A stretch of DNA of 46,056 nucleotides from a virus (Duplodnaviria > Caudoviricetes): positions 1 to 46,056 of IMG/VR virus record IMGVR_UViG_3300038315_001610; one strand, written 5' to 3'. The notes under the pieces are model-generated. The model was not told where the DNA came from. It saw only the letters and a program-made list of their open reading frames with translations, and made no database searches. This document shows, piece after piece, positions 2,174-41,359 of the stretch. Both the position numbers and the translations under genes were made by a program. Each line of letters begins with the position of its first letter. The first letter of the stretch is position 1.

Positions 2174-2201
2174 TTCTTTCTATCATTTTCCCCCAATTTA
2201 T

Positions 2202-2522
2202 ATGCCAGTAACACTGGAGCCATTCGGCGACTTCATAATCCTGGAACCTGTGGAAGAGTCTGCACTCACTGAGATGGGACTCATCATTCCGGACAATGAA
2301 GCAAAACAAAAACCAAAAGTCGGTATCGTAAAAGCAGTTGGACCAGATGTCACAAGATGTGAGGCAGGAAACAAGGTGGTTTTCTCTCCGTTCACTGGCG
2401 AGAAGCTGGGCATGCAGGTCTCCCCAACTGATTATCGTGAGTACCATGTTCTCCGTGAGGATGCTTTAATTGCTAACTACCAAGAAACCCCAGATGCTGA
2501 AACTCGTAAAAAGGCTAAATGA
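2202..2522 (+). CDS. groES: Co-chaperonin GroES (Cpn10)
   Basis: LEPFGDFIILEP, mobile loop GLIIPD, KPKVGIVKAVGP, VLREDALIA. Confidence 0.9.
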   Translation: MPVTLEPFGDFIILEPVEESALTEMGLIIPDNEAKQKPKVGIVKAVGPDVTRCEAGNKVVFSPFTGEKLGMQVSPTDYREYHVLREDALIANYQETPDAETRKKAK

Positions 2523-2856
2523 ACGCCTTTACAATCACTGGCATAACTATTCCCCAGCACTCAAAGAAGACGAGCAGTTGACAGATGAAGAGTGTGATGG
2601 ATTGCAGGCAATTGTCGAGGCTCGTGGCTGGGATGCTCTAATCAAGGTAAAAGACAATGTGAACAAGATGCGCAATCGTAATGCCATCAGCATGTGCGAT
2701 GGTAGATCCCTCGTTGAATTTAAGAAAATGGAAGCGTTGGACGATCTCTTTGTTGTGGTAGATCACTTGGTGGATGCACACCGAGAAAGAACCAAACCTG
2801 TTGAGGATGAAGACAAAGAAACGCCACGTAAAATGCATGACTATGTTCCTCGATGA
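2494..2856 (+). CDS. Hypothetical protein (small helical portal-adjacent protein)
   Basis: ORF track 2470-2856; first ATG at 2494; position between portal and scaffold is typical. Confidence 0.6.
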   Translation: MLKLVKRLNERLYNHWHNYSPALKEDEQLTDEECDGLQAIVEARGWDALIKVKDNVNKMRNRNAISMCDGRSLVEFKKMEALDDLFVVVDHLVDAHRERTKPVEDEDKETPRKMHDYVPR

Positions 2857-3112
2857 GATTACACCAGAAGAACTTGGCTTTTCCGAAGAAGAATGGGACA
2901 GCATGTCCGTATTCGACCGCAGAGTGTGCGTGGCATTCTTCGTTAGGAGGACTCCAATTGCAACAAGCAGGGCATTAGGATTGAAAGATTCAAGTTTCTC
3001 CACAGTGCGCAGGAAAATAGTGGACTTGGAACTTGTTAAAAGATTTACGCAATTGCGTATAGATCAGCAAGAAGTGCCTGCACCCCAAGAGAGTTGTGCA
3101 CACAAACAATAA
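2837..3112 (+). CDS. Hypothetical protein, possible HTH
   Basis: Overlaps the previous stop; TSRALGLKDSSFSTVRRKI resembles an HTH. Confidence 0.45.
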   Translation: MTMFLDEITPEELGFSEEEWDSMSVFDRRVCVAFFVRRTPIATSRALGLKDSSFSTVRRKIVDLELVKRFTQLRIDQQEVPAPQESCAHKQ

Positions 3113-3240
3113 CAACCATATTGAGCTTACCTTTTCTGTTCCTTGAAACTATAGGCATTGGTTGGATGGCTGTGCGTTGCAGATGCCAAGATCGTCTGCA
3201 ATCCCTAGCCATCTGGCTACACTTCTTTCCCCATAATTAT

Positions 3241-4053
3241 ATGACTACTTCAACACAAGTTGGATCAGCACAGGCAGCGTCTGCAAAGGCAGCTGGTGAC
3301 AGTGCTGGCAGCAGCGATGCTGGACAATCCGAGTTCTCTTCGGATATCATCCCTGAAGGTGGTGCGACTGCCAAGCAGAGATCTGCTGAGGCTCCAGGCG
3401 CAGGACAACCTGCGATCCCAGGAGAAAAAACAGTCTTTGAGCAAGGTGCTCAACCGCCTGAAGAAACAAAAGAGGGCACAGCTAAAGAAGGCGCAGAAGC
3501 TCCTTCTAAATCTGAAGTTAACCAGCAAGCCAAAGGCGAGCGACAAGAGCAGGCTGGTTGGCAGCAAGTACAAGAATCCCTTACTTCCATTAACGACAGA
3601 CTCGATGGACTTGAGTCTGGCAAGGAGGAAGGGAAGAAAGAAACGAAGACAGAAGGCGGTAAAGAGCAAGCTCCTGCAGAGGCAGGGGATCTTGCCAATG
3701 TTGTCGCCGAAGCTCTCGAGCCTGTCGCTGCCGAACTGGAGAAAACACAATTCCAGCAGGCTCACCCCGATGTGCTGCTTCCGGAAAATCAGGAAGCATG
3801 GACAGCTGTTAATTCAGATCCCAAGTTCGACAAATTCTCTTTGCAAGAGAGATATGACCATATCATGAACAAGGAGAACAAAGCGAACCTCAGTGCTATG
3901 CAAGACCAACTCTCGAAAGCCGAAGGCTCTATGCCAGGAGGCTCTGGTTCTGGCAGTGCACCAAAAGGAGGTAATCCTAAGGTGGACGCAGACACAATTG
4001 AAGTTGGGAAAGCATTTGGTTTCACTCAAAAGGAATTGGAAGAGGAACTTTAG
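3241..4053 (+). CDS. Probable capsid scaffolding protein
   Basis: Acidic and low-complexity with coiled coils; C-terminal helix GKAFGFTQKELEEEL; upstream of capsid genes; ATG 3241 follows the TTCCCC motif. Confidence 0.7.
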   Translation: MTTSTQVGSAQAASAKAAGDSAGSSDAGQSEFSSDIIPEGGATAKQRSAEAPGAGQPAIPGEKTVFEQGAQPPEETKEGTAKEGAEAPSKSEVNQQAKGERQEQAGWQQVQESLTSINDRLDGLESGKEEGKKETKTEGGKEQAPAEAGDLANVVAEALEPVAAELEKTQFQQAHPDVLLPENQEAWTAVNSDPKFDKFSLQERYDHIMNKENKANLSAMQDQLSKAEGSMPGGSGSGSAPKGGNPKVDADTIEVGKAFGFTQKELEEEL

Positions 4054-4072
4054 ATAATTCCCAATCAATCGC

Positions 4073-4525
4073 ATGCCTAATTTCGTACTCGAAAGACCAT
4101 CCCCATTGCTAATGCATGTGGACTGGTCGAAGACTGCAAGCACTGCTTTTGCAGCAGGGCAGCTTGTTGAGGCAGACTCAGATAATTCTGGTGTCGGCTT
4201 TGACGCTGCTGACGCAACAAGCACAAAACACATTGGGATTGTACAGCAAACCATCGCCTCCGCAGATAGCGATTATGCTTCTGCCACGAGGCTTTCGCTG
4301 GAAGTAGACCTTATGGGTCTATATAAAGCAGAGGTCGGCACAGGAACTCCAACTGCCAACTACGAAGGCTACCCATGTGACTTAAATGCCAGTGGGCTGG
4401 TTAACGTTAGTGCCTCCGCAGTGGATGTGTTCTTGATCAACCGCAACTTAGGTCTCGGTGTTGATGGTTCGACGTACTTTGTCCTTGGATTTATTATCAA
4501 ATGGGCATACGTTAATCCTAACTAG
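4073..4525 (+). CDS. Probable capsid decoration/cement protein
   Basis: 150 aa, small-residue beta-rich, between scaffold and MCP. Confidence 0.6.
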   Translation: MPNFVLERPSPLLMHVDWSKTASTAFAAGQLVEADSDNSGVGFDAADATSTKHIGIVQQTIASADSDYASATRLSLEVDLMGLYKAEVGTGTPTANYEGYPCDLNASGLVNVSASAVDVFLINRNLGLGVDGSTYFVLGFIIKWAYVNPN

Positions 4526-4557
4526 ACCCTCTTATTTAATTCCTTCTCTTTGTTACC

Positions 4558-5535
4558 ATGGCTGTACAAACCACAGTATTAGAACCAGGAGCAGCTCTAA
4601 CGAAAAACGCTTTCGTGGCATGGAAGCGTGGTTTTCGGTCTGTTCCTGCAGCTGGGCGACTTGTATTCACAGTCTCAAGTGTGCAATACAAAACGTCCGA
4701 GCATGATAATATAGACTATTCTCCGATTGCGGATGAGACAGCAGAAGGCACAAACTATTCTGCCAGCAATCCAACGAAGGGAGATGCCTTGAATCTCACA
4801 CAAGGTAAAGTCACCTCATCTTTTGAGATTACTCAGGAGATGCTTAAATTCGATCGATATAGCATGATGCGTGCACTAAGAGGCATGATGAAACTCGGTC
4901 GAGCATGCCCAGAAAGAATGGAGCTTGATCTCCAACTCTTCCTGTTGTCAATGGGCTTCGGTTCAAGCTACACTGACAAAAACGGTAATTCTGTCGCAAC
5001 CACGACAGCAGATGGTGTTGCTGTTTACAATAACTCCCACACCGTAAATGGAACCAGCACTACTTACGATAACCTTGGCTCAACAGCGTTTGGCCAGACA
5101 GGACTTGAGGGAACTCAAGATCTTGCAAGATCATTCATTGACCAGCAAGGGAATATCGTCTATGTTGTGTTTGATTCCATCTTCACCACTTCTAAGAACC
5201 AGCTTGTTAATCTTGTCTGGGAGTATATGAATGGTGTGAACCACATTGAAGATGCAAACCGAGGTCCGAACTCCCAAAGGCGTTACGGCTATGAGCACAT
5301 AATCTTCCACAAGGGAGATTTCACTGCTCAGTCTGCTCGTGACAGCTCCAAGGATGACTACTGGGGAATGTATTCTTCAGAGAACCGTGAGCACGGTATC
5401 CTCGAGGTTTCTGGTAATCCTCGAATGGTAGATGCTGGAGTAATCCAGAGAAACCAGAATGTTCTTATGTTGACTGACTGCTTCTACGCATACGGTGTAC
5501 TGGGTGCGCAATGGATCGCAGCTAACAACGCTTAA
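4558..5535 (+). CDS. Major capsid protein (HK97 fold)
   Basis: 325 aa; E-loop-like TAEGTNY, FEITQEMLKFDRY, and C-terminal FYAYGVLG; position in head module. Confidence 0.8.
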   Translation: MAVQTTVLEPGAALTKNAFVAWKRGFRSVPAAGRLVFTVSSVQYKTSEHDNIDYSPIADETAEGTNYSASNPTKGDALNLTQGKVTSSFEITQEMLKFDRYSMMRALRGMMKLGRACPERMELDLQLFLLSMGFGSSYTDKNGNSVATTTADGVAVYNNSHTVNGTSTTYDNLGSTAFGQTGLEGTQDLARSFIDQQGNIVYVVFDSIFTTSKNQLVNLVWEYMNGVNHIEDANRGPNSQRRYGYEHIIFHKGDFTAQSARDSSKDDYWGMYSSENREHGILEVSGNPRMVDAGVIQRNQNVLMLTDCFYAYGVLGAQWIAANNA

Positions 5536-5554
5536 TTCTTTCCCCAGATAAATT

Positions 5555-6184
5555 ATGGCTTCAAATCTAAAAAATAGGCTGGAGAACTTCGTTATAGCAG
5601 CCTTAGGGACAACAGTCGTGCTGGGGTCATATATAGCTTGGTTTCAAGGTGATGTCCGCATCACTGGCGATGCTGTTGTTGGCGGTAGTGTTGTCCAGAG
5701 TGGAGGCTTGCTTCCTATCACTGGATCTTTGACATTAACGCCATCAGATGGAAGCGGAGGCATACTGTCCGTGCAAAATTCGATCGCTAGAGATCTAATC
5801 TGCAACAGTGTTGTTTTGGACGTAACCACTTCTCCAACCTCAGATACGTATATGGATGTTGGGACAGCTTCTGGTGCAGCCACTCAGGCTAATCTTGGAG
5901 CATGCGGAGGTCTTGCAATTGGACAATGTGGATCAGGAAGTAATATAGCAAACAACCTGTTCCTGAGCGCAGGCTCTGCGACTGGTGTTTACACACTTTC
6001 TGGCTCCGCATTGTATAACACTGTTGCCCAATCACCATTGGGTGCGAGTGGATCCTACGCAAAGAGCTTCAAACTTAATGCAACAGATGGCGTCACGGAT
6101 TACATTAATTTCGTGGCGACACGCTCTCAAAGCGGTTCAGGATTGGCAGGCAGATACTACTTCTATTGTATCAACGCCCAATAA
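5555..6184 (+). CDS. Virion-associated protein with N-terminal hydrophobic helix
   Basis: FVIAALGTTVVLGSYIAWF followed by a G/S/T-rich beta domain; immediately after MCP. Confidence 0.6.
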   Translation: MASNLKNRLENFVIAALGTTVVLGSYIAWFQGDVRITGDAVVGGSVVQSGGLLPITGSLTLTPSDGSGGILSVQNSIARDLICNSVVLDVTTSPTSDTYMDVGTASGAATQANLGACGGLAIGQCGSGSNIANNLFLSAGSATGVYTLSGSALYNTVAQSPLGASGSYAKSFKLNATDGVTDYINFVATRSQSGSGLAGRYYFYCINAQ

Positions 6185-6216
6185 CGCCTTGATTATTTTA
6201 TTCCCCCTAGTTAGAT

Positions 6217-6807
6217 ATGGCTAAACAAGCTGAAAGGGCAGCAAGACCCAATACCGCTGAATTAGTTCGGCAGGGTCGACTGACCTATAACAAGACACGT
6301 GGTCTTGATCCCAATCCAAATCCGGACATTGGGCATAACATGGATCCGGAAACAGGGATGCGCTATGGACTAACTCCTGAGAAATACCACAGGCTGGTGC
6401 TCAAGAGTGAAAAACAGCGCAAACTCAATAAGGAATGGGACTTCGTGCCAGAACTCGAAGATGCTGAGTGGGATGTTTATGTTGGCTGGCTGAAAGCAGG
6501 CGGTCCACAGAAGATGCGAGCAGAAGGAAAAGAATCTGTTCGTTCTCAACTGCGGGACGCTGCTGCCATGGCAAAGAAATTTGATGCCGAAGGCGCAGCA
6601 CAGTTAGCAAGCATTCCAGCAGCAGCCCCAGCCCAAGCAGCAGATGCTGACGAGGCTGTGGAATCTCAGGTAGAAACTGAAACTGAAGAGATAGCAGAAG
6701 ACATTGACGCAGAAGAATACGAACCAATTTCAGAAGAAGACGATAGCGAACCTGAGGTAGTTTCTGCCAAGCCGAAAGGTCGTGGCAGAGGCAAGAAGAA
6801 GAAATAG
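6217..6807 (+). CDS. Hypothetical protein with acidic tail and basic C-terminus
   Basis: 196-aa ORF with a TTCCCCC upstream motif. Confidence 0.7.
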   Translation: MAKQAERAARPNTAELVRQGRLTYNKTRGLDPNPNPDIGHNMDPETGMRYGLTPEKYHRLVLKSEKQRKLNKEWDFVPELEDAEWDVYVGWLKAGGPQKMRAEGKESVRSQLRDAAAMAKKFDAEGAAQLASIPAAAPAQAADADEAVESQVETETEEIAEDIDAEEYEPISEEDDSEPEVVSAKPKGRGRGKKKK

Positions 6808-6822
6808 TACCACTCAATCACA

Positions 6823-7686
6823 ATGTCAGGGCAGTCTCTAAATTATGTTACCGTCGGCGAAGCAATCGATGCAGCACTCGGCAAAACTGTCGGAGCAGCA
6901 AATCAACTTCCCACGGAACTACAGATGACTGCCCTGATACGTGAAATTAGCGACATTAACGCTGAGTTCTACGATCGTGGCGAAAAAGACATGAAAAAGA
7001 AATTCTGGTGGATGGAAGAGTTCCACAATTTCAACACTTATGCAGCAACAACCCTTGGTGCTGCTGCAGCTGCTAACGCAAGCGTCTTGACTCTCACTGA
7101 TGCTTCCAATTTCCCAGCAGGTGGAGGCAGGGCTTTCAAGCAACCATCTGGTGATGGGCATGTGGATTACTTCGACTTTGGAGCTTCAGATCAGTCAACA
7201 CAACTAACAACAGTAACAAACTTCCAACTTGCAGGAGTCTCAGGAGACAGGATCGAGCTGTTATATGCAACGCCAGCCGACTTCGGTGATGCAATAATAG
7301 TACATCTGGATCGTGTCCCCTATTACCACCAAGACCCCTTGCCCAACATGTTGCCCATTCGACCGTACTTTACGTTCAATGGTGCTTACATGCTGTTCCC
7401 GAGAGACACAGGAGCGCACAAAGGCACGCTGAGGTATTGGAAACAGGCAACCGACTTAACTACAAACGAAGACGATGCGGACAACAGGGCATTGTCGACC
7501 AATGTTCCAGACAAATACCGCAAATACCCGATCTTCCGTTTGGCAGCAGAGATTATGGTTGTCAAGAGAAGATTCGATTTAGTAGACAGATTTAATTTGG
7601 AAGCAGAGAAAGTTTACCAGAGGGCAATTCAAGCCGAGGTAAATGCTTCTGCTTCTCCTTACGATACCGTTGGACCATCATGGTAA
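6823..7686 (+). CDS. Probable head-tail adaptor
   Basis: Helical N and C termini (VPDKYRKYPIFRLAAEIM) flank a beta insert; position before the nozzle. Confidence 0.6.
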   Translation: MSGQSLNYVTVGEAIDAALGKTVGAANQLPTELQMTALIREISDINAEFYDRGEKDMKKKFWWMEEFHNFNTYAATTLGAAAAANASVLTLTDASNFPAGGGRAFKQPSGDGHVDYFDFGASDQSTQLTTVTNFQLAGVSGDRIELLYATPADFGDAIIVHLDRVPYYHQDPLPNMLPIRPYFTFNGAYMLFPRDTGAHKGTLRYWKQATDLTTNEDDADNRALSTNVPDKYRKYPIFRLAAEIMVVKRRFDLVDRFNLEAEKVYQRAIQAEVNASASPYDTVGPSW

Positions 7687-9683
7687 GAACTGCCACACCA
7701 GTGGAATACAAGAAAATATCTCTTAACTTCAAGGGGGGACTGGACATGACATCTGATCCACAGAATGTCAAAGATGATGTTGTTGTGATTTCTGAGAACA
7801 TGAGGATGTCAAGCAGGGGATTCTTATACACTCGCTACGGCATCGAATTGAAGACAGATTTCAGCACCAACAACGAGATAGAAGACATGGGTGTAAACCA
7901 CCAGAGAAATGTACTGTTTGCAAAATGCAACGCCACCATGTATGCTGGCGTCTCTGCAGATACGATGTACGATATAGGAGTGGTGAGAACTGCTGACACA
8001 GATGAAGTGTTGCACGATTTTGGAGATTACATGATTGCAACTAACGGAACAGATAATATGATAACATTTATCGTTGGTCTTGTCGGAACACAATTCATAG
8101 CCAGCGACACCACAATAGTTCTTGGTGCTGGGCATAACCAGAACTTCCGAACACCAAACACTGGCAATTGCACCGCCACCGCAGGAACAGATGTGATCGA
8201 TGCAGTTGGTCATGGATTGGTAAATGGGGACAGGGTTGCATTCTGGAGCGACGACACTCTTCCAGGAGGAATCTCTGAGTGGACAGAGTACTTTGTAATT
8301 AACAAGAACACCGATGATTTCCAGATCTCCACTACGTACGGTGGATCGGCTGTGGATATCACTGATGCTGGAACTGGCACACACTCCTTTACTGATGGCA
8401 TATGCTACTGCAAAGGAAAGATGTTTGTCTACACTGGCAAATCTGGCAACAATTTCACTGGCGCAAGAGTCCAGTCTGGCACTTACACTGTTGGATTGGC
8501 TGTCACCCAGAGCTTCGATCCCCTTTACGGAAAGAAGGGAACCTGCATGTATGATCTAGATGAGAAACTGTTGCTAGGGGGAGTTTCTGGTTATGAGGAT
8601 ATGTTGTATTACTCTGCGACATCTAGCGAAGCAAATCCAGAATATGTTGTAGACTTTACAGCTGGCGATGCATCTGGCAAGCGAATGCCATCTGCTATAA
8701 CTGCACTCATGAGCGGAAGCAAGACTGTCTTGATTGGCTTGAAGAAAGGCATCTATTATGCGCAGGGATTCAATGCAACCTCTGGTGCGCTGGAGAGCAA
8801 AAGAATAACAGACAACTTTGGTGTGCCGAATGCGCAATGCATCATATACATGGATCCGTACTACTTTGTGTTCACTGGCAAACGCATCTTGCAGATATAC
8901 GTGCAGGACGATGGCAGAGCACAGCTCATAGAACCAACACGTGAAAATGAATTTAGACCATTTGATCATCCAGTGCAGGGATTGCTTGCAAAATGTGACG
9001 CAGACCAGAGTGGAGCATTTGGCTACTATGATCCAAACACGAACCACATGATATGGAGCGTGGTTATAAATTCTATCAATCAGGAGGCGGTGTGGGATAA
9101 CAACAGCCACAAGTGGGTGAGCGTGGACAAAGGAAAGCCAGTTGCCTGCCGAGTGTCTTACAACAGCAGGACTTACAGTGGCGATGTTAACGCTGGGAAG
9201 ATTTATCTTGAGGATGAAGGGTTGGCAGATGATGGAATAACGATTGCCCACAGGGTGTTGACACGTGAATATGTTTATGATGACGAAAGGGCAACAATTG
9301 ATTTGACAGAGTTTTACCACGCTGGTTACTTAAGTGGTGCTGGAGATCTGAATTTGCATATCTATGCAAATGGAAAGAAGCAGAATACCATAAACATACA
9401 TGCGCTCGACAAGGAGAGTGGTGACGGATTAGTTACTCTGGGTCTTATGGATCTGGACAGTGGCACCCCTATTGGGGGAGGTGTCATCGGTGGCATCACT
9501 TTCTTGTCGAGCGGTGACGAAGAAGAAGTGTTTGATTATGATTATCCACTCGGATTGCTGGATAGTGCAACCACTTACCAATTCGAATTTGAAACAATTG
9601 AAGAAGGAACTCAATGGGCACTTCGGCAGTCCAAATTGATCGGAGAAACCACTGAGGAAAATGTTTCTGTACCCACTCAATAA
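7680..9683 (+). CDS. Probable tail nozzle/hub (P22 gp10-like) with inserted FCCH-like domain
   Basis: NFKGGLD..ENM start, beta-propeller-like body, GHGLVNGDRV..YFVI..FQISTT insert. Confidence 0.65.
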   Translation: MVRTATPVEYKKISLNFKGGLDMTSDPQNVKDDVVVISENMRMSSRGFLYTRYGIELKTDFSTNNEIEDMGVNHQRNVLFAKCNATMYAGVSADTMYDIGVVRTADTDEVLHDFGDYMIATNGTDNMITFIVGLVGTQFIASDTTIVLGAGHNQNFRTPNTGNCTATAGTDVIDAVGHGLVNGDRVAFWSDDTLPGGISEWTEYFVINKNTDDFQISTTYGGSAVDITDAGTGTHSFTDGICYCKGKMFVYTGKSGNNFTGARVQSGTYTVGLAVTQSFDPLYGKKGTCMYDLDEKLLLGGVSGYEDMLYYSATSSEANPEYVVDFTAGDASGKRMPSAITALMSGSKTVLIGLKKGIYYAQGFNATSGALESKRITDNFGVPNAQCIIYMDPYYFVFTGKRILQIYVQDDGRAQLIEPTRENEFRPFDHPVQGLLAKCDADQSGAFGYYDPNTNHMIWSVVINSINQEAVWDNNSHKWVSVDKGKPVACRVSYNSRTYSGDVNAGKIYLEDEGLADDGITIAHRVLTREYVYDDERATIDLTEFYHAGYLSGAGDLNLHIYANGKKQNTINIHALDKESGDGLVTLGLMDLDSGTPIGGGVIGGITFLSSGDEEEVFDYDYPLGLLDSATTYQFEFETIEEGTQWALRQSKLIGETTEENVSVPTQ

Positions 9684-9685
9684 TT

Positions 9686-11512: not shown

Positions 11513-11536
11513 TATTGAATGCTAATCTATTAAATT

Positions 11537-33344: not shown

Positions 33345-33370
33345 ATTGCTCGGGGGAAAATAACATGCCT

Positions 33371-33398: not shown

Positions 33399-33402
33399 TC
33401 AA

Positions 33403-33624: not shown

Positions 33625-33823
33625 GAAACAATTGCCATTTACTTGCCGAAATCCTCTCTATCCTTGCCATCATGTGCTGTGTTAGTTCGCTCTCCATTCC
33701 TCTTTGTGCCCAAAGCGCAATCATTGAGTTTATCCTTGATACAGCCTCAGCCTCGCTTTCCGGAGGCTCTTGAATTATATCTTCACGTCTGCACGTTCTT
33801 GGTGCTAGTTTCTTATCAGTCAT
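33596..33823 (-). CDS. Hypothetical protein
   Basis: ATG 33823 (MTDKKLAP) overlaps the upstream stop. Confidence 0.5.
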   Translation of the reverse strand: MTDKKLAPRTCRREDIIQEPPESEAEAVSRINSMIALWAQRGMESELTQHMMARIERISASKWQLFLELFKRGTR

Positions 33824-33956
33824 CGTCAGAATGAGGAATAGATTTAGCTGGTCTTCTTTCCATGTAATAGACAAATAAGCCAACCGCACACAGGAGGATG
33901 AATAGTAATGCTGAGATTAGCAATGTTATGCCGATGATGCCAATAACTTTGTCCAC
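33816..33956 (-). CDS. Small membrane peptide (46 aa, GTG start, not in track)
   Basis: MDKVIGIIGITLLISALLFILLCAVGLFVYYMERR... Confidence 0.55.
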   Translation of the reverse strand: MDKVIGIIGITLLISALLFILLCAVGLFVYYMERRPAKSIPHSDDD

Positions 33957-33970
33957 AACAGTTGAAAGAA

Positions 33971-34174
33971 TTAAACAGGTTTCTCTGCTTCTTCAAGTTG
34001 AACACCTAACGACTTATACGCTTCAAAGTCTTGCTTGTTCAGAGTCTTGCGACCTGCAAGCAATGTGTGCGCAACTTGAAATTCAGATTCCAAGGGGTAT
34101 ATCAAAGGGTTTCCGTAAACCTTATCGGAGTAGTAGTGGAATTTTTTCTGAGCTTTGGGTTTGGGGGATGCCAT
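33971..34174 (-). CDS. Hypothetical protein
   Basis: 67 aa; KVYGN.LIYP..L.G.KTL pattern; promoter and CCCCC motif upstream. Confidence 0.7.
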   Translation of the reverse strand: MASPKPKAQKKFHYYSDKVYGNPLIYPLESEFQVAHTLLAGRKTLNKQDFEAYKSLGVQLEEAEKPV

Positions 34175-34209
34175 AATATGCTGGGGGTAGAGGTGTTGTG
34201 GGTAACGGG

Positions 34210-34237
34210 ATTATGCCTGAGAGGTGTAGTAAAGCAA
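34210..34237 (-). promoter_or_regulatory. Promoter TTGCTT-N16-CATAAT
   Basis: Conserved family; CCT-CTC-AGG in the spacer. Confidence 0.75.
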
Positions 34238-34243
34238 GACAAT

Positions 34244-35230
34244 TTACATGCAACATTCTGTTATTTGCGGGCATTGTTTCAACATCATTTGATAAAACAA
34301 TTCTCGTTCCTCAATTCGGGTTAAATCAAAACGTAAAACAGAACCATCAGGAAATATGTAGTGATTGCAACACCCAATTTTTGTCGGATAAGGCAAGCCA
34401 TATTGTTTAAAAGCATATCTAGTGCCACCAAATCTGTCTACCAGGAGCGCAGCAATGCGCTTCCCCCTATTGTGCGCTCTGGGCAATTCTTTGTTCACTC
34501 TTATAAATTCCATGGTTCGATACTTTAGCTGAGCGGGGCAGGTTCCTTTTTTGTTCTGTTCGGCAAACTGTTTCTTCAATGGCTTGCCCTTTCTTGCCTC
34601 GGCACGTTTTCGTCTAGCTTCTTTTGTCCATTTGTAAATGGGCTTTTTTCTGCCTTCTAGGAATGTTTTAGTTGTTGCCAAAGAAAAGGCATCACTCACT
34701 AATCCCGAGGTTAAATTCAAGCCATAGCATTTTTTGTATTCTCGGGCTGTCATCCCAACACAAGATTTGACGTGCATCGGCGAAAGGCTTTTCATCCATT
34801 GTCCGCATTTGTGACATTGCACAAGTTGTCTGTCATCAGTTTGCACAAGCAATCCCCAATAGCCATGCTCCCCTTTCACTGGCATTAATGGTCTCTTGGC
34901 GACCCCAATGTATGCTTTTCCAGTTGGGCTTTCAGGATATTCGATTATTTTGTCAGCATAATGTTTTTCTTTGCCTTCAAATGAAGGTAAATCCATAGTG
35001 GTTTTTCTTTTTGCTTGGTGAGTTGCGCATTTACATCTACCTTTCACCGCATTATTGACACAACCAGCAAAATTGCATTTTTTGGTGGGTTGGTTGGCTG
35101 CCCAATTCTTCACATATTCCTTCCTACACTTTTTGCACATGCTCATGTATCCATCTCTGTATCTTTCATCTTTAGCAAACGAATGAATTGCCTTCTGCTT
35201 GCCACATTTGTTGCAAAGTTTTTTCTTCAT
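34244..35230 (-). CDS. Multi-zinc-finger DNA-binding protein with ROS/MucR-like domain (start uncertain)
   Basis: CNKC..CKKC, C..GC..C..H, CHKCG.WMKSL..H...GMTAREYKK.YGL. Confidence 0.65.
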   Translation of the reverse strand: MKKKLCNKCGKQKAIHSFAKDERYRDGYMSMCKKCRKEYVKNWAANQPTKKCNFAGCVNNAVKGRCKCATHQAKRKTTMDLPSFEGKEKHYADKIIEYPESPTGKAYIGVAKRPLMPVKGEHGYWGLLVQTDDRQLVQCHKCGQWMKSLSPMHVKSCVGMTAREYKKCYGLNLTSGLVSDAFSLATTKTFLEGRKKPIYKWTKEARRKRAEARKGKPLKKQFAEQNKKGTCPAQLKYRTMEFIRVNKELPRAHNRGKRIAALLVDRFGGTRYAFKQYGLPYPTKIGCCNHYIFPDGSVLRFDLTRIEERELFYQMMLKQCPQITECCM

Positions 35231-35254
35231 GGCACTCGGGGTAATAAATAAATT

Positions 35255-35462
35255 GGGAGCCTCGTGGGTATTCATTGGGGGAATCACCCCCCATTGCCTT
35301 CCAGACATACCTCTCCCGATGAAAATTCAGGTTCGGCTCCCGTGGGTGCTAGGAGATCACACCAAGTAGCAGTGTCCGCAAAGCTCAGAGCCATCTTCTT
35401 GGCACACTATCGAGAAGAGGTTGACCGCAGAAAAATCTGCACCACTGCTACTCACTATGATC
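35255..35462. ncRNA. Candidate structured RNA (RNA-C)
   Basis: 10-bp helix 35365-35374/35443-35452 enclosing two hairpins, plus further stems. Confidence 0.45.
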
Positions 35463-35473
35463 GAAAAGAACAA

Positions 35474-35626
35474 TCAGATAAGGGTATGACATGGGCATTC
35501 ACAAGGTTCATCGATTGCTCCATTCTCAACTGCTGTGCCCATGTCATCTGGTCGGCAGTCAAGCTCGAGACCGCAGTGCCTGCAGAGCATGTCACTGCAA
35601 CAGCCTTCGAAGTCGTATTCATCCAT
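35474..35626 (-). CDS. 50-aa acidic Cys-rich peptide (not in track)
   Basis: MDEYDFEGCCSDMLCRHCGLELDC...PCECPCHTLI; TTCCCCCTTTCCCC upstream. Confidence 0.55.
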   Translation of the reverse strand: MDEYDFEGCCSDMLCRHCGLELDCRPDDMGTAVENGAIDEPCECPCHTLI

Positions 35627-35653
35627 ATTGAATTGGGGAAAGGGGGAATAAAA

Positions 35654-35971
35654 TTATCTATCGCTTGGTGGGGAGTAGAATGACCAACCGTATTCTTTGT
35701 TGTAATCCATGATTGTTGAACCGTAGTATCCAACAGTAACGTATTCGCCTGTCTCGGAATCGTATTCCTGTTCGGACAACCCGATATAGGCTTGCCCAAC
35801 ACCTGAGGGCATGTGGTTTTGCACATGGTTCACAGCATTTATTACCGCTGATGCAAGGGATTGGTATTTTCCTATCTCTTCAAACTGTGCATCGCCATCT
35901 TTCGGGGGTGCACTGACCGTCACGTTAAATATTTGTTTGGTTGCCTTTGGTGTGGAAGTGGATTTCTCCAT
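35654..35971 (-). CDS. Hypothetical early protein
   Basis: First gene after the 36004 promoter; TTTTCCCCC upstream. Confidence 0.7.
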   Translation of the reverse strand: MEKSTSTPKATKQIFNVTVSAPPKDGDAQFEEIGKYQSLASAVINAVNHVQNHMPSGVGQAYIGLSEQEYDSETGEYVTVGYYGSTIMDYNKEYGWSFYSPPSDR

Positions 35972-36003
35972 AATGAATTGGGGGAAAATAAAAGAACACA
36001 CTC

Positions 36004-36031
36004 ATTATGCCTGACAAGCCTAAGAAAGCAA
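36004..36031 (-). promoter_or_regulatory. Promoter TTGCTT-N16-CATAAT
   Basis: Conserved family; start of the leftward transcription block. Confidence 0.75.
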
Positions 36032-36162
36032 CCAGATAGTCTTGCCTAATCAGTCAAATCCACGTAGAACATGCATTCATTCCACCTTTTAATGCAGTAT
36101 TAGCCCTTGTAGGGGCAAGCGCATCCTGTAAAAGTCAGGCATACTGCGCCAGTATGTTCTTT

Positions 36163-36342
36163 GACAATTCGATCTCAAGATGACATAGAGTGGAGAGTTG
36201 GAACGATGCCTCGGCAGAATTCCTATCTCGCTCGGGGTAGAGTGCAGCTTTTCTGTTCTTTAACATGACGTAAGTGATGTTGTAAAATGGCAAAAGGGTT
36301 AACTGCGCTGTCTCTCCACTCTGTGTTCTTTTGAACTTGTTG
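36163..36342 (+). ncRNA. Candidate rod-shaped structured RNA (RNA-B)
   Basis: 15-bp helix 36183-36197/36312-36326 and inner helix 36241-36247/36303-36309; G-U pairs favour the + strand; no credible ORF. Confidence 0.55.
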
Positions 36343-36648
36343 TGGAATATCCAACTTTCAACATTGGCGAAAGAATCGTAGTGCCACCTATTTGCTAACG
36401 GTGAGGCGACATGGGCTAGGCGTGAGTGTGCGACTCAAATGGATTATGAAAGATTTGAGTAGGGCAATAAGTGGATGCCAGCATAAAGAGGCAGATTGCG
36501 TTAATATCTGCGCTGGCAAGAGCTGATTCCTGTGCTCTCAATTTGCGATGGAAACAGATCTTCTTCTTTGATGATAATATATACAACTATCATTAAAGAG
36601 GAGAGACTGCACCTGTGCAACTCATTGCTCCGGAAACAGTAAAATGAC

Positions 36649-36677
36649 TTGCTTCCTACACCTGATAGGGGCAAGCT
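36649..36677 (+). promoter_or_regulatory. Rightward promoter TTGCTT-N17-CAAGCT
   Basis: Same -35 and TACACCT-N3-AGG spacer as the leftward family; precedes the + strand gene block. Confidence 0.55.
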
Positions 36678-36716
36678 AGGGTTGCCACAACAGGCAAAAG
36701 AACACCTTCTATCCCG

Positions 36717-36974
36717 ATGCAAACTTTACTTCCCACATTAACCATTGAGAAATTCTTGCTGAGTGACTTCGGCTTCCTCACCTCCGAACTAAAAGAAATG
36801 AATCGTTCCGGAAGAGAGCCAGTCTCCATTGATGTGGAAACAGGAACGATGGAACCAAACGATGTTCCAGTGGTTGTGTTGAAGAACGTAAAGATTACAG
36901 AGCATGGTTTGGAAGTGATTCGACCTGATGCAAAATCTCCTGAGGCACCTGCTCCAGAGATTGGCATGCCCTAA
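36717..36974 (+). CDS. Hypothetical protein
   Basis: First + strand ORF of the block. Confidence 0.6.
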   Translation: MQTLLPTLTIEKFLLSDFGFLTSELKEMNRSGREPVSIDVETGTMEPNDVPVVVLKNVKITEHGLEVIRPDAKSPEAPAPEIGMP

Positions 36975-36992
36975 TTCATTTCCCCCAAAGAC

Positions 36993-37265
36993 ATGTTAAC
37001 ATTCGAATACATGACACCGAAACAGAGAGTATTGTTTGTGTTGCGCAGATCCGCATGGCTTGTGCATGGAATCATAGTTGCAATTGCAGCACTATTGATA
37101 TTTGACCATTTTGACAAGACCATTAAGATATTTGAAATCAGGCATCCAAATGGAAATATCACCACGTTGCAGTGTGTCAAAGCTGACGAGAATGGACACC
37201 GAAGGCAACTCAGACATTGTGAACCAGAATACATGGCATTATCGATTATGATCCCTCCTAAATAA
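36993..37265 (+). CDS. Membrane protein
   Basis: One TM helix; TTCCCCC upstream. Confidence 0.6.
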   Translation: MLTFEYMTPKQRVLFVLRRSAWLVHGIIVAIAALLIFDHFDKTIKIFEIRHPNGNITTLQCVKADENGHRRQLRHCEPEYMALSIMIPPK

Positions 37266-37287
37266 TATTCCCTTCCCCCAATATATT

Positions 37288-37560
37288 ATGACAAAGAAGA
37301 CCCCAGCTGGAGATTTAACTTTCTGGCAAGATGTTGCGCTGAACGTTGCGCTGACTACAATGGTTCTCATTTTTATCATAGGGCTAATTACCACTGTTTT
37401 CCACGTTGGCAATTTCCTTATCGAGAAATATCCATACCACTCGCACGAGAAGTGCTCAGTGCACAGCCACCGTGCCAACTGTCGAGCTGAAGAGGCTTGG
37501 CGAGAGAAGTTGGAAGAGTTTGAGAAGAGGAGATTAGAAATACAACCTGTTACACGATAA
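37288..37560 (+). CDS. Membrane protein
   Basis: One TM helix; TTCCCCC upstream. Confidence 0.6.
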   Translation: MTKKTPAGDLTFWQDVALNVALTTMVLIFIIGLITTVFHVGNFLIEKYPYHSHEKCSVHSHRANCRAEEAWREKLEEFEKRRLEIQPVTR

Positions 37561-37564
37561 ATAT

Positions 37565-38299
37565 ATGCCCAGAACTAAAGGATCTAAGAACAAGGCTCCA
37601 GCCAAGAAACCACCTCCCAAGAAGAAGCGCAAGCAGACAAACCCAAAGATACCTGCAGACCAACTGGAGGACAAAGCAAAGAAACTGGAATCCAAGCTCA
37701 AAGGTCTCAAGCCATCTGACAAGATACAAATCAAGATGACCGTCAATCAATATAGAAAATATATAGCATGGTATAGAGACAGTAAGGGTGGTATGGGCGC
37801 ACCAACAACCTACAAGCCAGAATATTGTAAACAAATCGTAGACTATTTCGCAGAAAAATGCAAACATCCATTCAAATCTGTATCTATGCCTGTATTAGAT
37901 AGTAATTATAATATAACTATAGATGAAGATGGAGGGGAGGTGTATGAGAAGAAGACTATACCTAATACACCACCATACTTAGTAGACTTCGCTGTGGAGA
38001 TTGATGTATGGGTAGATACGTTGAGTGATTGGGCGGAGAAGCATGTGGAGTTCAACCGTGCTATCATGCATGCAAAGGAGATTAGGACTCAGATGATCGT
38101 GGATAACGGGCTTCTAGGTATTTACAACCCACACTCTTGGATCTTTGCTGCTAAGAACTTGTCTGGCATGACAGATCGTACTGACATCACATCCAAGGAC
38201 AAGGAAGTGTTTAATGTTAAGCTCCAGAGTTTTGAGAAACCTACTGATGAAGAACTTGAATCTGGCAATGTGCCTGCTTTACCTGCTCCGTTGAGATGA
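37565..38299 (+). CDS. terS: Terminase small subunit (P22 gp3-like)
   Basis: GAPTTYKPEYC, TLSDWA.KH.EF..A...AK, GL.G.YN...IF..KN..GM.DR.DIT. Confidence 0.75.
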   Translation: MPRTKGSKNKAPAKKPPPKKKRKQTNPKIPADQLEDKAKKLESKLKGLKPSDKIQIKMTVNQYRKYIAWYRDSKGGMGAPTTYKPEYCKQIVDYFAEKCKHPFKSVSMPVLDSNYNITIDEDGGEVYEKKTIPNTPPYLVDFAVEIDVWVDTLSDWAEKHVEFNRAIMHAKEIRTQMIVDNGLLGIYNPHSWIFAAKNLSGMTDRTDITSKDKEVFNVKLQSFEKPTDEELESGNVPALPAPLR

Positions 38300-38324
38300 A
38301 GATAGATCCCAAATCAATAGAGCT

Positions 38325-38555
38325 ATGAGTAACATCTGCGAAGCTCCCAATTGCAGGCTGAAGAAAGGAAGTATGCTGGGCTACCCAAGCAGATTCTGTG
38401 GTAAGCATGCAAGAGGCAATTACAGAGGACAGAAGGAGAAGTTCGAGAGCAAGCTGAGGGTCGAGAAGAATAACAATTATCTCGCTGGCGCCAAGAGCAA
38501 GACTACGTGGTTGCGTTATGAAGAATATGATGAGAAGCACCAACTGTCAGCTTGA
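38325..38555 (+). CDS. Small zinc-finger protein
   Basis: CEAPNC...FCGKH. Confidence 0.55.
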   Translation: MSNICEAPNCRLKKGSMLGYPSRFCGKHARGNYRGQKEKFESKLRVEKNNNYLAGAKSKTTWLRYEEYDEKHQLSA

Positions 38556-38637
38556 AAGTGCAGAAACCTCATCGCACTTGCCAAGGAGATTGCCAAGGAG
38601 GAGAACTAATTCAGTCTTAAATCTTCCCCCCAAACCT

Positions 38638-39012
38638 ATGTCCGGAACTGTAAAAGCAGGGATCGTGCGACCTCCCCAGATCAAAGAGAAATCGCACACT
38701 TACGAGTCTGTCTACACCACAAGCAAGGAAGGTGAAGATAGCGAACACCACGATGTCTGGAAAATCCAGATTGATGCAGTCGATAACAAGATCACAGACT
38801 TCCTCGCCAGATTGGTGTCTGGTGTTCTTCACACAAACAACCACCAGTTGCTCACTCTCGAAGAGGATGTCCTGAAGGAACTCGGGATTTGGCAAGAGCC
38901 AGAGGAACAGCTTTCCGAGGAGGAACAGCAGGATAAGGTGCCGATGCCGAGTGGCACCGCAGCAGGAGATACGCATACGACAGAACATGACACTCCGAAA
39001 GGAGACAAATAA
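38638..39012 (+). CDS. Hypothetical protein
   Basis: ATG 38638 follows TTCCCCCC. Confidence 0.65.
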   Translation: MSGTVKAGIVRPPQIKEKSHTYESVYTTSKEGEDSEHHDVWKIQIDAVDNKITDFLARLVSGVLHTNNHQLLTLEEDVLKELGIWQEPEEQLSEEEQQDKVPMPSGTAAGDTHTTEHDTPKGDK

Positions 39013-39036
39013 TTCTTTTTTTTTCCCACTATACCC

Positions 39037-39096
39037 ATGTTAGACAAATGTAAGAAAGGCGGTAAGAAAGGTCGCAAGAAGGGCAAAGGCAAGTAG
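39037..39096 (+). CDS. 19-aa Lys/Gly micropeptide (not in track)
   Basis: MLDKCKKGGKKGRKKGKGK; TTTTCCC upstream. Confidence 0.4.
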   Translation: MLDKCKKGGKKGRKKGKGK

Positions 39097-39224
39097 TATG
39101 AACCGCAACCGACCACGCTGGCGAACAACAGAAGTGAGAACTGTTACCGCTAGGGCTTCTCATATAACCAAGTCAGCAAAAGATATGAACTCTTACATGC
39201 CCCCAAATCCCGTGAAGACCTATC

Positions 39225-39452
39225 ATGTCAGTAGAACCGATGGATCAGAACGAGGCTGATCGTTGGGCACGAGAGAATCCAAAATTCAAGACATTGATGA
39301 AGGCGACTGTTGCTGCAAGATACCATAGCAGGGATAGCGAGCCTGTCGAAAGCCGAGCGGACAAGGCTCTGGAGGTTGGAGAAATAACCAGTGCCCAGCG
39401 TGCCATGCTCAAAGCAGTGCTGAATAGGCATGTGTTCCCACCGAAGATATGA
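39225..39452 (+). CDS. Hypothetical protein
   Basis: 75-aa ORF in the operon. Confidence 0.55.
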   Translation: MSVEPMDQNEADRWARENPKFKTLMKATVAARYHSRDSEPVESRADKALEVGEITSAQRAMLKAVLNRHVFPPKI

Positions 39453-39535
39453 TGTTTGTACTGCGTGGATTGTTCCAACAGGCAAGTCAGAATTTTTGCT
39501 AATGTGTGCTGACCGAGGCACAGTTCCCTGCGAAT

Positions 39536-39775
39536 ATGGAAAACAAGATAATTAACCGCATACTTCTCAAAGGCTCTCCGATGGTAGACACTGTTATCTC
39601 GGAGGTTGATTTCTGGGCTGCGTACAAGAAGGATCCCAAGCCAGAGGGAAGGATTATCGTGGAGGGTGTGTTCGGAGAGACCGTAACAGTGCTTAAATCT
39701 GCAGTAATTGGATTTGTCGACCGCACGAACATGCGGATGCCGAGTCCAGGACAACTTGGTCCACTTAATTCCTAA
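39536..39775 (+). CDS. Hypothetical small beta protein
   Basis: ATG 39536 follows TTCCC. Confidence 0.6.
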   Translation: MENKIINRILLKGSPMVDTVISEVDFWAAYKKDPKPEGRIIVEGVFGETVTVLKSAVIGFVDRTNMRMPSPGQLGPLNS

Positions 39776-39786
39776 CCCATTTTCAC

Positions 39787-40152
39787 ATGCCAAGACAAGA
39801 CCGTTATATCTCGGATGTTCTCATGAACCAGACACTCAAACCAGAGGAGGAGGTCGAGGTTCACTTCTTCCACGATGTGGGAGATTATGGTGGAGACAAA
39901 GACAATGTCGTCCTCGGATTTATGAGAGGTGGACATGTCGTCTCCCAAGTCTGTATCCTTATCTCCGAAGGCAACTACACCGTCAAGGAGTTCAAGGAAT
40001 ACCTCAAGAATGCGATTGCTTCTCCGCACTATCCCAAGTGCTCGTTTGATTTCGAAGAGGCAACCAAGGAAGAGATCGAAGAGCTTGCCGCAGAAGACAA
40101 GACACCAAGGGTTGTAGCTTTTAAGCAACCCAATTCCGAATGGAGTTACTAA
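39787..40152 (+). CDS. Hypothetical protein
   Basis: 121-aa ORF in the operon. Confidence 0.65.
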   Translation: MPRQDRYISDVLMNQTLKPEEEVEVHFFHDVGDYGGDKDNVVLGFMRGGHVVSQVCILISEGNYTVKEFKEYLKNAIASPHYPKCSFDFEEATKEEIEELAAEDKTPRVVAFKQPNSEWSY

Positions 40153-40379
40153 TGTCAGTCAACGATATCACTCTCAAGAAGGCAAAGAATGGCTTCATAG
40201 TCAGCTACTGGAAGTCCGCACCGAAGACAAAAGGACAACCAGGCAGCTGTTGCGGGATGGGTGAGCACATAGACGAGGTGTTCACGGACAAGACGAAAGC
40301 CTCCGAGCGCATGTCAGAAATTGTACCGCATTGGAGAAGACGTGAAAGCATTGCGAGGACTTTACCACCACCACAATGA
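40152..40379 (+). CDS. Hypothetical protein (KAKNGFIV family)
   Basis: TAATG coupling to the upstream gene. Confidence 0.6.
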   Translation: MSVNDITLKKAKNGFIVSYWKSAPKTKGQPGSCCGMGEHIDEVFTDKTKASERMSEIVPHWRRRESIARTLPPPQ

Positions 40380-40669
40380 GATATGTCCATTCGCTAAAAT
40401 CCATGAACATACAGCCTGCGCAGAACGGATATGTATTGCATTATTCGTTTTTGCAGGCATGCCCAGACCATACAAGCACAGCGGAATGCGAGAACTGTGC
40501 ATATTGTACGAAGATTTATATTTGTAAGACCTTCGAAGAAGCACTGGAACACATAGCCATGGAGTTCTGCGATGCCTTCGATGAAGGTTTGTTCCATATT
40601 ACACAAGAAAAACATGCCAGCAAAAAAGAAAGCCAAACCAAAGGCGAAGAAGAAGGTGACGAAGGCTAA
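40376..40669 (+). CDS. Hypothetical protein (PAQNGYVL family)
   Basis: ATGA coupling; resembles the upstream ORF. Confidence 0.6.
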   Translation: MRYVHSLKSMNIQPAQNGYVLHYSFLQACPDHTSTAECENCAYCTKIYICKTFEEALEHIAMEFCDAFDEGLFHITQEKHASKKESQTKGEEEGDEG

Positions 40670-40862
40670 GCGAAAGCCTGTTGCCAAGAAAAGGGCGAAG
40701 CCTAGAACATCGAACAAAGGTGCAACTCTCCATCCACATTGCGACCACGCTTGGGTTCTCGCCCACAGTACTGGCAGTTTCATAGTTGCGAAGGCAGTCT
40801 TCGTTTGCACCAAATGCTGGAAGCAGCAGTGCCTGAAACTGGGCATGGAACTAGAAGATTAA
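40614..40862 (+). CDS. Lys/Ala-rich basic protein with C-terminal zinc ribbon
   Basis: MPAKKKAKPKAKKK...CDH.W...CTKC. Confidence 0.55.
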   Translation: MPAKKKAKPKAKKKVTKAKRKPVAKKRAKPRTSNKGATLHPHCDHAWVLAHSTGSFIVAKAVFVCTKCWKQQCLKLGMELED

Positions 40863-40876
40863 TTCCCCCAATCCAA

Positions 40877-41359
40877 ATGCCCTCAGGAATAGACATCCCA
40901 GTTCACCCAGATACTCCAACTGGCAGACCAGAGAAATTCATTCTCGAGAAGGTGCAAATTGGGTGTCAGCAAGAAATCTCAGGCGACTTGGTACGCAAGG
41001 TAGAAGGAGATGGTGACGAAAGAATACGCATATTTTACAATCAGATGGTGGATCGTCTTGTCGCCCAGATTAAGACATTCATTATGGGAGAGAAGGCGCA
41101 CGAGGAAACAAGAACAGTGGTATTTGAATATCCTGCGAGCTGGTGGCAGCACTTCAAACAGGAAGTGTTCCCACGATGGTTGCTGAAGAGATATCCAGTG
41201 CGCAGGCAGAGGCATCAAAGGCTGGTTATTTTCAAACAAGTTGAAGTCCTGCCTAAATTTAATCGTTTTTTAAAGCCAGAGGAACAGGAATTGCATTTTC
41301 CAGTTCTTTCTGCTGAAGTTTCCCCCCAACATCCATGTCCACAGCCCCCAAGAACATAA
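40877..41359 (+). CDS. Hypothetical protein
   Basis: YPASWWQHFKQ..FP.W motif; TTCCCCC upstream. Confidence 0.65.
   Translation: MPSGIDIPVHPDTPTGRPEKFILEKVQIGCQQEISGDLVRKVEGDGDERIRIFYNQMVDRLVAQIKTFIMGEKAHEETRTVVFEYPASWWQHFKQEVFPRWLLKRYPVRRQRHQRLVIFKQVEVLPKFNRFLKPEEQELHFPVLSAEVSPQHPCPQPPRT

Follow-up and report, generated by a model that had tools for sequence, protein, structure and literature searches.

A C-rich box at Shine-Dalgarno distance from the gene starts of a tailed phage and in Peribacteria genomes

Introduction

How ribosomes find the start of genes that lack a Shine-Dalgarno (SD) site is an open question, and most natural alternatives that have been defined are A-rich. The virus record IMGVR_UViG_3300038315_001610 (IMG/VR; Duplodnaviria, Caudoviricetes), analysed here over its whole stretch of 46,056 nucleotides (nt; the window), poses this question in a C-rich form. 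An initial annotation, made from the letters alone, had noticed runs of the type TTCCCCC before gene starts on both strands and had proposed an initiation signal of an unusual host, possibly from the candidate phyla radiation (CPR), that is read by a G-rich rRNA segment or by a ribosomal protein. Its interpretation stands in the spacing, the role in translation and the CPR host; a GGGGGAA segment that it suggested looking for in the host 16S rRNA was not found in four Peribacteria 16S genes, one of them partly masked. We describe the box in the phage and in the genomes of Peribacteria, and weigh what may read it. Published work is cited from the accessible parts of the papers.

The C-box and its position

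The element consists of a U-rich run, three to six C and an A/U-rich spacer, with UUCCCCC as the best form. TTCCCCC occurs 24 times in the genome, compared with 5.25 +/- 2.10 copies in 100 shuffled sequences (largest 10). Fourteen of the 24 copies end 6-10 nt 5' of a gene start, and another adds a second box to one of these leaders; the other nine are within the chance range. All 14 contexts quoted in the initial annotation were present as written, and the enrichment was confirmed by a motif-blind test, in which the first ATG of 58 open reading frames (ORFs; at least 60 amino acids (aa), on the strand of their block) was compared with 1,731 other ATGs. CCCC ended 5-11 nt upstream of 15 first ATGs and of 28 others (odds ratio 21, p 5e-13), CCC at the same distance from 27 first ATGs and 89 others (p 2e-18). 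SD-like GGAG, GAGG or AGGA preceded 2 of the 58 starts and 145 of the 1,731 other ATGs (p 0.23), which is background. The C frequency in the motif-blind set peaks with 0.62 at -11 and 0.59 at -10 and drops to 0.14 at -6 and -5.

A list of 62 genes was curated by hand: 28 had at least four C, 12 had three C and 22 had no box, an upper value for the boxed share as some starts were picked by their box. The start followed the last C at a distance of 6 nt in 3 genes, 7 nt in 12, 8 nt in 15, 9 nt in 5, 10 nt in 4 and 11 nt in 1. This range of 6-11 nt with a mode of 7-8 nt agrees with the SD-like spacing suggested at the outset. The boxed share of the phage genes amounts to 47-65%, i.e. about half to two thirds. 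Boxes were first reported between 2186 and 41337; they are present there, yet the range is wider and extends from 125 to 44830. A single GGAGG-led start had been noted at 31515. The context exists, but it is improbable as a start: the in-frame ATG at 31479 has a box of its own and a one-base overlap with the upstream stop, and is therefore probably the start. The leader of the major capsid candidate (4558) has a long U/C tract and no CCC run. The individual sites are as follows.

2188..2194, plus: C-box TTCCCCC, 7 nt before groES (2202)
3227..3232, plus: C-box TTCCCC, 8 nt before ATG 3241
4058..4062, plus: weak box TTCCC, 10 nt before ATG 4073, intergenic gap of 19 nt
5540..5545, plus: C-box TTCCCC, 9 nt before ATG 5555, 19-nt gap
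6201..6207, plus: C-box TTCCCCC, 9 nt before ATG 6217
24643..24648, minus: C-box TACCCC, 9 nt before the RusA-like gene (24633)
25177..25182, minus: C-box CACCCC, 10 nt before ATG 25166, within the upstream ORF
25813..25819, minus: C-box TACCCCC, 7 nt before ATG 25805, leader behind the predicted promoter 25836-25864
27627..27633, minus: C-box TTCCCCC, 7 nt before the RecT-like gene (27619), within an upstream small ORF
27757..27763, minus: C-box TTCCCCC, 7 nt before a 46-aa ORF (27749)
28133..28140, minus: C-box TTCCCCCC, 8 nt before ATG 28124
28250..28256, minus: C-box CTCCCCC, 8 nt before a 31-aa ORF (28241)
29786..29791, minus: C-box TTCCCC, 7 nt before ATG 29778, within the upstream ORF, stop/start overlap
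30123..30129, minus: C-box TTCCCCC, 10 nt before ATG 30112
31487..31493, minus: C-box TTCCCCC, 7 nt before ATG 31479 (probable start)
31922..31927, minus: C-box TACCCC, 8 nt before ATG 31913
32269..32274, minus: C-box TTCCCC, 8 nt before ATG 32260, within the upstream ORF
33352..33358, minus: C-box TTCCCCC, 7 nt before ATG 33344, behind the predicted promoter 33371-33398
34183..34189, minus: C-box TACCCCC, 8 nt before ATG 34174
35238..35243, minus: C-box TACCCC, 7 nt before ATG 35230
35635..35648, minus: double box before a 50-aa ORF (35626), the nearer run ending 8 nt before the ATG
35980..35986, minus: C-box TTCCCCC, 8 nt before ATG 35971
36980..36986, plus: C-box TTCCCCC, 6 nt before ATG 36993
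37273..37279, plus: C-box TTCCCCC, 8 nt before ATG 37288
38624..38631, plus: C-box TTCCCCCC, 6 nt before ATG 38638
40863..40869, plus: C-box TTCCCCC, 7 nt before ATG 40877
41320..41327, plus: C-box TTCCCCCC, 7 nt before groEL (41335), within the upstream ORF
43196..43201, plus: C-box TTCCCC, 8 nt before TTG 43210
44815..44821, plus: C-box CTCCCCC, 8 nt before ATG 44830, within the terminase ORF

Host assignment and the box in Peribacteria

The five closest matches of the phage GroEL are unnamed and share 59-65% identity with it. Named entries among the best 120 matches were 23, affiliated to Peribacteria or Peribacteraceae (14), Peregrinibacteria (4), Patescibacteria (3), a "bacterium" (1) and Kiritimatiellales (1). 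Compared across 201 genomes of the Gracilibacteria-type class, GroEL had a match in 181. Thirteen of the 16 top-ranked genomes carry one distinctive 16S tail, the other three are without a listed tail, and two further genomes with this tail ranked below the top 16. The tail group is affiliated to the Peribacteria because the GroEL of Candidatus Peribacter riflensis has 84, 77 and 75% identity to three of its members, compared with 63 and 62% to two other genomes, and because the published P. riflensis tail GAACACTTCCTTA (PMC6107228, supplement) is the tail of four members. In a GroEL tree of 34 rows the phage clade fell within the Peribacteria set of 17 rows (Shimodaira-Hasegawa-like approximate likelihood ratio test, SH-aLRT, 100). 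Forcing the phage clade out of this set costs 12.6 log units (approximately unbiased test, p 0.043). In view of the long stem and the odd composition of the phage rows, the placement has to be seen as support, not as proof. The five unnamed GroELs and the phage GroEL form one long-branch clade. A second phage with GroEL (L003) has a C-rich groEL leader, and its GroEL also nests in the Peribacteria, at a separate place. A scan of viral sequences for boxed groEL starts gave three chance matches only, and four runs compared with a Peribacteria 16S yielded only short conserved pieces.

The box was counted in a host set of 15 genomes, defined by the Peribacteria-type 16S tail. Summed over the set, TTCCCCC occurred 414 times at 7-9 nt before an ATG, 134 times at 12-14 nt and 123 times at 2-4 nt, and the count at 7-9 nt was the highest in all 15 genomes. 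The shorter TTCCC was found 3,969 times at 8-11 nt and 3,118 times at 20-23 nt, a ratio of 1.27 with an excess in 15 of 15 genomes. No such excess was present in four other groups of the class (55 genomes), with ratios of 0.91 (16 genomes), 1.00 (5), 0.95 (14) and 1.00 (20). The signal is common to the phage and the hosts, and within the groups tested it is specific for the spacing and for the clade. At least 20 copies of TTCCCCC at 7-9 nt before an ATG were present in 10 of 401 CPR genomes, all of the Gracilibacteria class; in seven of them the Peribacteria-type tail was seen. A scan of GTDB genomes for TTCCCC before rpsL-type starts gave 30 loci in cyanobacteria, the Planctomycetes-Verrucomicrobia-Chlamydiae (PVC) group, Gemmatimonadota, CPR and one deltaproteobacterium, none with a phage-like density; the motif was counted in one cyanobacterial, two planctomycete and one Gemmatimonadota genome.

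Several observations weigh against this assignment and against a signal of equal standing in the host. The link to the host is a single gene, groEL, with the long stem and odd composition mentioned, and a terminase profile matched only 6 of 200 genomes of the order, all distant. The signal is weaker in the hosts, where the excess amounts to about 57 TTCCC sites per genome. TCCC precedes 2-13% of the first ATGs in nine host samples, compared with 25% in the phage, and a -10 box stands directly before 9-36% of the host starts, in a leaderless layout, compared with 4 of 60 in the phage. In 318 ribosomal-protein leaders from 16 genomes (the 15 hosts and G124) the C frequency is high but flat (0.29-0.51 from -22 to -1) and no box is seen; since the profile is flat even in Peribacteria, these leaders are a poor test for the box. 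Several of 251 Verrucomicrobiota genomes reach a similar raw motif density of 25-33 per Mb. The ribosomal-protein leaders of seven of these dense genomes had AGGAG-type sites and no box, in a comparison to which the spacing control was not applied; Verrucomicrobiota were set aside, not excluded. On the GroEL matches, the tree and the spacing-specific excess together, the host is quite probably a member of the Peribacteria, and the phage would use a stronger version of a host signal. The CPR host suggested at first is in this way supported and narrowed to one clade.

Two side observations concern related genomes. The palindrome TTCCCCC-(2-4 nt)-GGGGGAAGGGAATG occurs several times each in the Peribacteria genomes G097, G116 and G056 and is possibly a dispersed repeat element. 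Another, separate clade, in which AAGGAG follows the tail (G041, G095, G053, G028 and G065), has a C peak of 0.64 at -8 in 87 ribosomal-protein leaders; this may be a related signal that lacks the TT prefix.

A C-rich leader may also arise without any reader, if leaders merely avoid G, stay unfolded and free of pairing with the 16S tail, and base composition leaves C and U. Ribosomal-protein leaders in 82 Gracilibacteria-class genomes are G-poor throughout, with a C content that follows the genome GC content, and the C profile of these leaders is flat in the Peribacteria group. Phage start regions, boxed or unboxed, are weakly folded (means of -1.2, -1.9 and -2.2 kcal/mol). Against mere avoidance of G stands the C peak of the phage at -11/-10 followed by 0.14 in the A/U-rich spacer, and shuffling within the leaders yielded 8.9 boxes compared with 40 real ones in the curated list, which is biased upward. 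Moreover, the host excess is limited to one spacing and one clade, and in nine genes the box is kept within an upstream coding sequence. A leader without a reader is rather improbable.

Translation or transcription

Five promoter-like sites of the sigma70 type, TTGCYT-16/17-CATAAT, are located on the minus strand, where 0.08 are expected:

25836..25864, minus: predicted promoter TTGCTT-17-CATAAT, -10 ends 30 nt before ATG 25805
28510..28538, minus: predicted promoter TTGCCT-17-CATAAT, nearest downstream boxed start 268 nt away
33371..33398, minus: predicted promoter TTGCCT-16-CATAAT, -10 ends 26 nt before ATG 33344
34210..34237, minus: predicted promoter TTGCTT-16-CATAAT, -10 ends 35 nt before ATG 34174
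36004..36031, minus: predicted promoter TTGCTT-16-CATAAT, -10 ends 32 nt before ATG 35971

Four of the five are followed by a boxed ATG, 26-35 nt from the end of the -10, which places the box downstream of the promoter and within a predicted leader that is short. With separate promoter-like sites upstream and no -35 partner, the box is very probably not a promoter -10 box and does not fit the leaderless layout of group C. Twenty-seven strongly boxed genes have a neighbour upstream; 17 of them begin at most 35 nt from it and nine overlap it, and in these nine the box is thus written into coding sequence. A box in leaders behind separate promoters as well as inside operons most likely acts in translation. 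This arrangement supports the translation-level signal of the initial annotation, and we consider it very probable that the box acts at translation initiation. The same layout, in leadered genes that are first or internal in operons, is the GeneMarkS-2 criterion for a ribosome-binding site (RBS) over a promoter (PMC6028130).

The box may instead mark transcription or RNA processing, e.g., as a -10 element by which an alternative sigma factor gives leaderless mRNA, or as a nuclease or stability site. Leaderless starts are widespread in the hosts, the spacing is as tight as for a -10 element, and one box reads CCCCAT (3241); the -10 consensus of the heat-shock sigma factor also includes a C-run. 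Against a transcription mark stand the separate promoter-like sites upstream of four boxed genes and the mostly operon-internal position of boxed genes. No sigma factor family was found among the 65 ORFs with PHROGs and Pfam. The region 15-55 nt upstream of the 28 strong boxes revealed no conserved element, and no -35-like element stands at a fixed distance, CTTGA or TTGA[AC]A being present in 2 of the 28. We regard such a mark as very unlikely.

The promoter-like sites have a further feature. AGG stands directly 5' of CATAAT in all five, as part of a palindrome CCTnnnAGG that is perfect in three and has one mismatch in two. It is a candidate operator for a phage regulator.

The reader of the box

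The initial annotation had proposed to inspect the host 16S rRNA for loss of CCUCC, and this core is indeed mostly lost: it is intact in only 3 of the 15 Peribacteria genomes, the anti-SD being degenerate. P. riflensis is listed among SD-scarce organisms (PMC10783764). The phage leaders avoid pairing with the 13-nt 16S tail: with two Peribacteria tails, pairing of -4 kcal/mol or stronger was obtained for 5-6 of 58 phage leaders, compared with 100-111 of 257 internal ATGs.

We tentatively favour, at somewhat less than an even chance, the explanation that the C-run is a ribosome-binding signal of the Peribacteria host which is read by a protein of the small subunit and not by the 16S tail. Given a role in translation, the chances are about even that the reader would be a protein site at the usual place of the SD helix, most likely bS1. 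The bS1 protein, which the hosts encode, would hold the U/C tract on single-stranded mRNA; an AUG 7-8 nt downstream would then reach the P site, and the relic anti-SD would take no part in initiation. bS1 prefers pyrimidine-rich RNA. An ORF with multiple S1 domains (open frame of 478-526 aa) was present in four of five hosts, and bS21 was matched in only 5 of 22 genomes of the host group; a bS1 of three to four domains and a frequent loss of bS21 have been reported for these lineages (PMC9297842). A protein is preferred over the tail because C-runs of four to six exceed the GGG available, because CCCC outnumbers CCCT 11 to 4, because the capsid candidate and the host ribosomal-protein genes have long U/C tracts without a sharp box, and because of the multi-S1-domain ORF in four of the five hosts. 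Two observations count against a protein: the fixed distance of 7-8 nt fits base pairing equally well, and the 11 nt that follow the host tail pair with 42 and 51 of 58 phage leaders, compared with 97 and 128 of 257 controls.

These 11 nt point to a possible inverted SD interaction, in which an extended 3' end of the Peribacteria 16S rRNA would pair through CCAGGGA(A/G) with UUCCC of the mRNA, with the polarity opposite to the usual one. This segment, which lies shortly beyond the normal end of the tail, was the sole candidate RNA partner found, and the tests on it gave mixed results; mature 16S ends are unmapped for most species (PMC6107228). All 15 Peribacteria genomes agree at tail positions 8-20, a stretch that ends in CCAGGGA, whereas CCUCC is intact in only three; the next base is G in eight, A in six and T in one. 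Mean pairing with the 11 nt was -5.6 and -6.2 kcal/mol for phage leaders and -3.8 and -4.3 kcal/mol for internal ATG regions. A second predicted hairpin in 12 of 15 genomes folds a downstream pyrimidine stretch onto the G-rich segment and could shield it in the precursor like a guard, and the spacing of the box is that of the SD window.

However, the conservation of the segment is already accounted for by its fold onto the relic anti-SD, in which pair 7:21 is C-G in eight genomes, U-A in six and U-U in one, i.e. a compensatory pair in 14 of 15. A hairpin of segment and anti-SD region was also predicted in nine of nine other genomes of the class, all chosen for having one. The box does not track the tail: in 21 other genomes the tail is followed by AGGGAG or TGGGAG, and TTCCC is not in excess there (ratios 0.91 and 1.00). 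The perfect partner would end in CCCU, but the base after TCCC in the phage leaders is C in 11, T in 4 and A in 2, and C-rich leaders would pair with any G-rich 11-mer. Pairing with the extended tail is unlikely as the explanation. Slightly more doubtful is its full form, a flipped SD system of the Peribacteria with the relic anti-SD as fold-back partner only, to which the phage would have tuned most of its genes. In Gracilibacteria-class 16S genes (L302-L321) the hairpin of anti-SD and downstream segment is kept by several compensatory changes, and other members have lost both parts; this suggests selection on the fold, not on pairing with mRNA.

Pairing with an internal G-rich stretch of the 16S rRNA has been suggested for C-rich sites that were obtained by in vitro selection with E. 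coli ribosomes and that are sensitive to competition by oligonucleotides (Barendt 2012, PMC3310771). G-runs of the Peribacteria 16S differ from those of two outgroups, e.g., near position 733 of the comparison sequence. Yet these lineage-specific G-runs are probably within helices, and neither the GGGGGAA segment suggested earlier nor the shorter GGGGAA was present in four Peribacteria 16S genes, one of them partly masked. The sites selected in vitro are dispersed and perform poorly in E. coli cells (PMC3310771). An internal rRNA partner is very unlikely. The protein reading, tentative as it is, remains the one we favour.

The phage genome

The window holds a complete tailed-phage genome of 46 kb (1..46054), as indicated by a terminal repeat in which the first 98 nt recur at 45957-46054. 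Scans of 65 ORFs with PHROGs and Pfam identified a portal protein of the P22/SU10 type (125-2173), GroES (2202-2522), GroEL (41335-43017, plus strand) and the terminase large subunit (from 43406), furthermore an endolysin, a RecT-like protein, an exonuclease, the RusA-like protein (24633), a thymidylate-synthase homologue and a helical domain of a 5-hydroxymethyldeoxyuridine (5-hmdU) kinase. The ORF at 4558-5535 (plus strand) is the probable major capsid gene, its predicted structure matching the Phage_capsid_4 cluster with a TM-score of 0.93. Rfam at the gathering threshold and ARAGORN gave no matches in the window.

The phage DNA is present in nine listed marine-metagenome runs of three studies, and five of these runs are possible sources; no RNA run is listed for the phage. 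Contigs of four runs contained no variant in any box within 33000-45000, at low and partial cover. A terminase search for related phage DNA retrieved identical copies only; three close terminase relatives have 52-71% identity, and in 80 distant terminase loci the motif never preceded 20% of the genes.

Some features stand apart from the box. The genes for GroES and GroEL are unlinked and lie on either side of the terminase-portal block. In a minus-strand cluster (28540-33093) the thymidylate-synthase homologue and the helical domain of the 5-hmdU kinase are joined by two ORFs, one nucleotide-kinase/DUF3310 and one glycosyltransferase-like, which suggests hypermodified thymidine in a probable CPR phage. 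The ORF 16033-20628 codes for a protein of 1,531 aa in the virion region with an ART-PolyVal (ADP-ribosyltransferase-like) domain at residues 1003-1112. Between divergent gene blocks, about 1 kb (35972-36992) is without a convincing long ORF and has more CCTnnnAGG-like sites; it is a probable control or origin region.

Relation to known initiation signals

The box resembles the signal of GeneMarkS-2 group B (Bacteroides, Flavobacterium; PMC6028130) as a localized motif at about SD distance, noncomplementary to the anti-SD, before leadered genes that are first or internal in operons. In the phage, four boxed genes lie behind predicted promoters, with predicted leaders, and 17 of 27 strongly boxed genes begin within 35 nt of an upstream gene. 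The motif stands before 47-65% of the phage genes; the hosts have the excess TTCCC sites, about 57 per genome, and diffuse U/C tracts. The box differs from group B in its U/C core, only the spacer being A/U-rich. Bacteroidia have an intact anti-SD, which bS21, bS18 and bS6 sequester (PMC13000453), whereas here it is degenerate and bS21 is mostly unmatched (5 of 22). With the SD/anti-SD system the box shares the window, the narrow spacing and the many coupled genes without a site; it has the opposite base composition, and the leaders avoid the 13-nt tail. The RBSs obtained by ribosome display (Barendt 2012, PMC3310771) are likewise C-rich, non-SD and directly 5' of the AUG, but these are synthetic, spread over 18 nt and weak in vivo, whereas the present box is natural and sharply placed in a phage and one clade. 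The same study showed that C-rich sites are able to function in vitro, and it noted C-rich leaders in a few phages (PMC3310771).

Among the SD-scarce organisms without CCUCC is Ca. P. riflensis (PMC10783764, PMC6107228), of the same lineage and with the same tail GAACACTTCCTTA, with an SD use of 3-7%. The accessible parts of these two papers name no C-box; the Tompa motif given for P. riflensis is TACACT, a -10 box (PMC6107228, supplement). Nor is such a box named in the accessible parts of PMC12641261, PMC10798248 and PMC13000453. No description of a C-box of Peribacteria or their phages was found in the literature covered, mostly listings, with subscription papers outside. The box is real and linked to a clade, and would be an apparently unpublished variant of non-SD initiation signals.

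For start finding without an SD site, a sharp C-rich box in a clade with a decayed anti-SD provides a concrete element and a concrete spacing, together with two opposed mechanisms. The box is usable as a marker, by which phages can be assigned to Peribacteria and the start calls of Peribacteria genomes corrected. Were the G-rich tail its reader, SD polarity would be reversed in nature.

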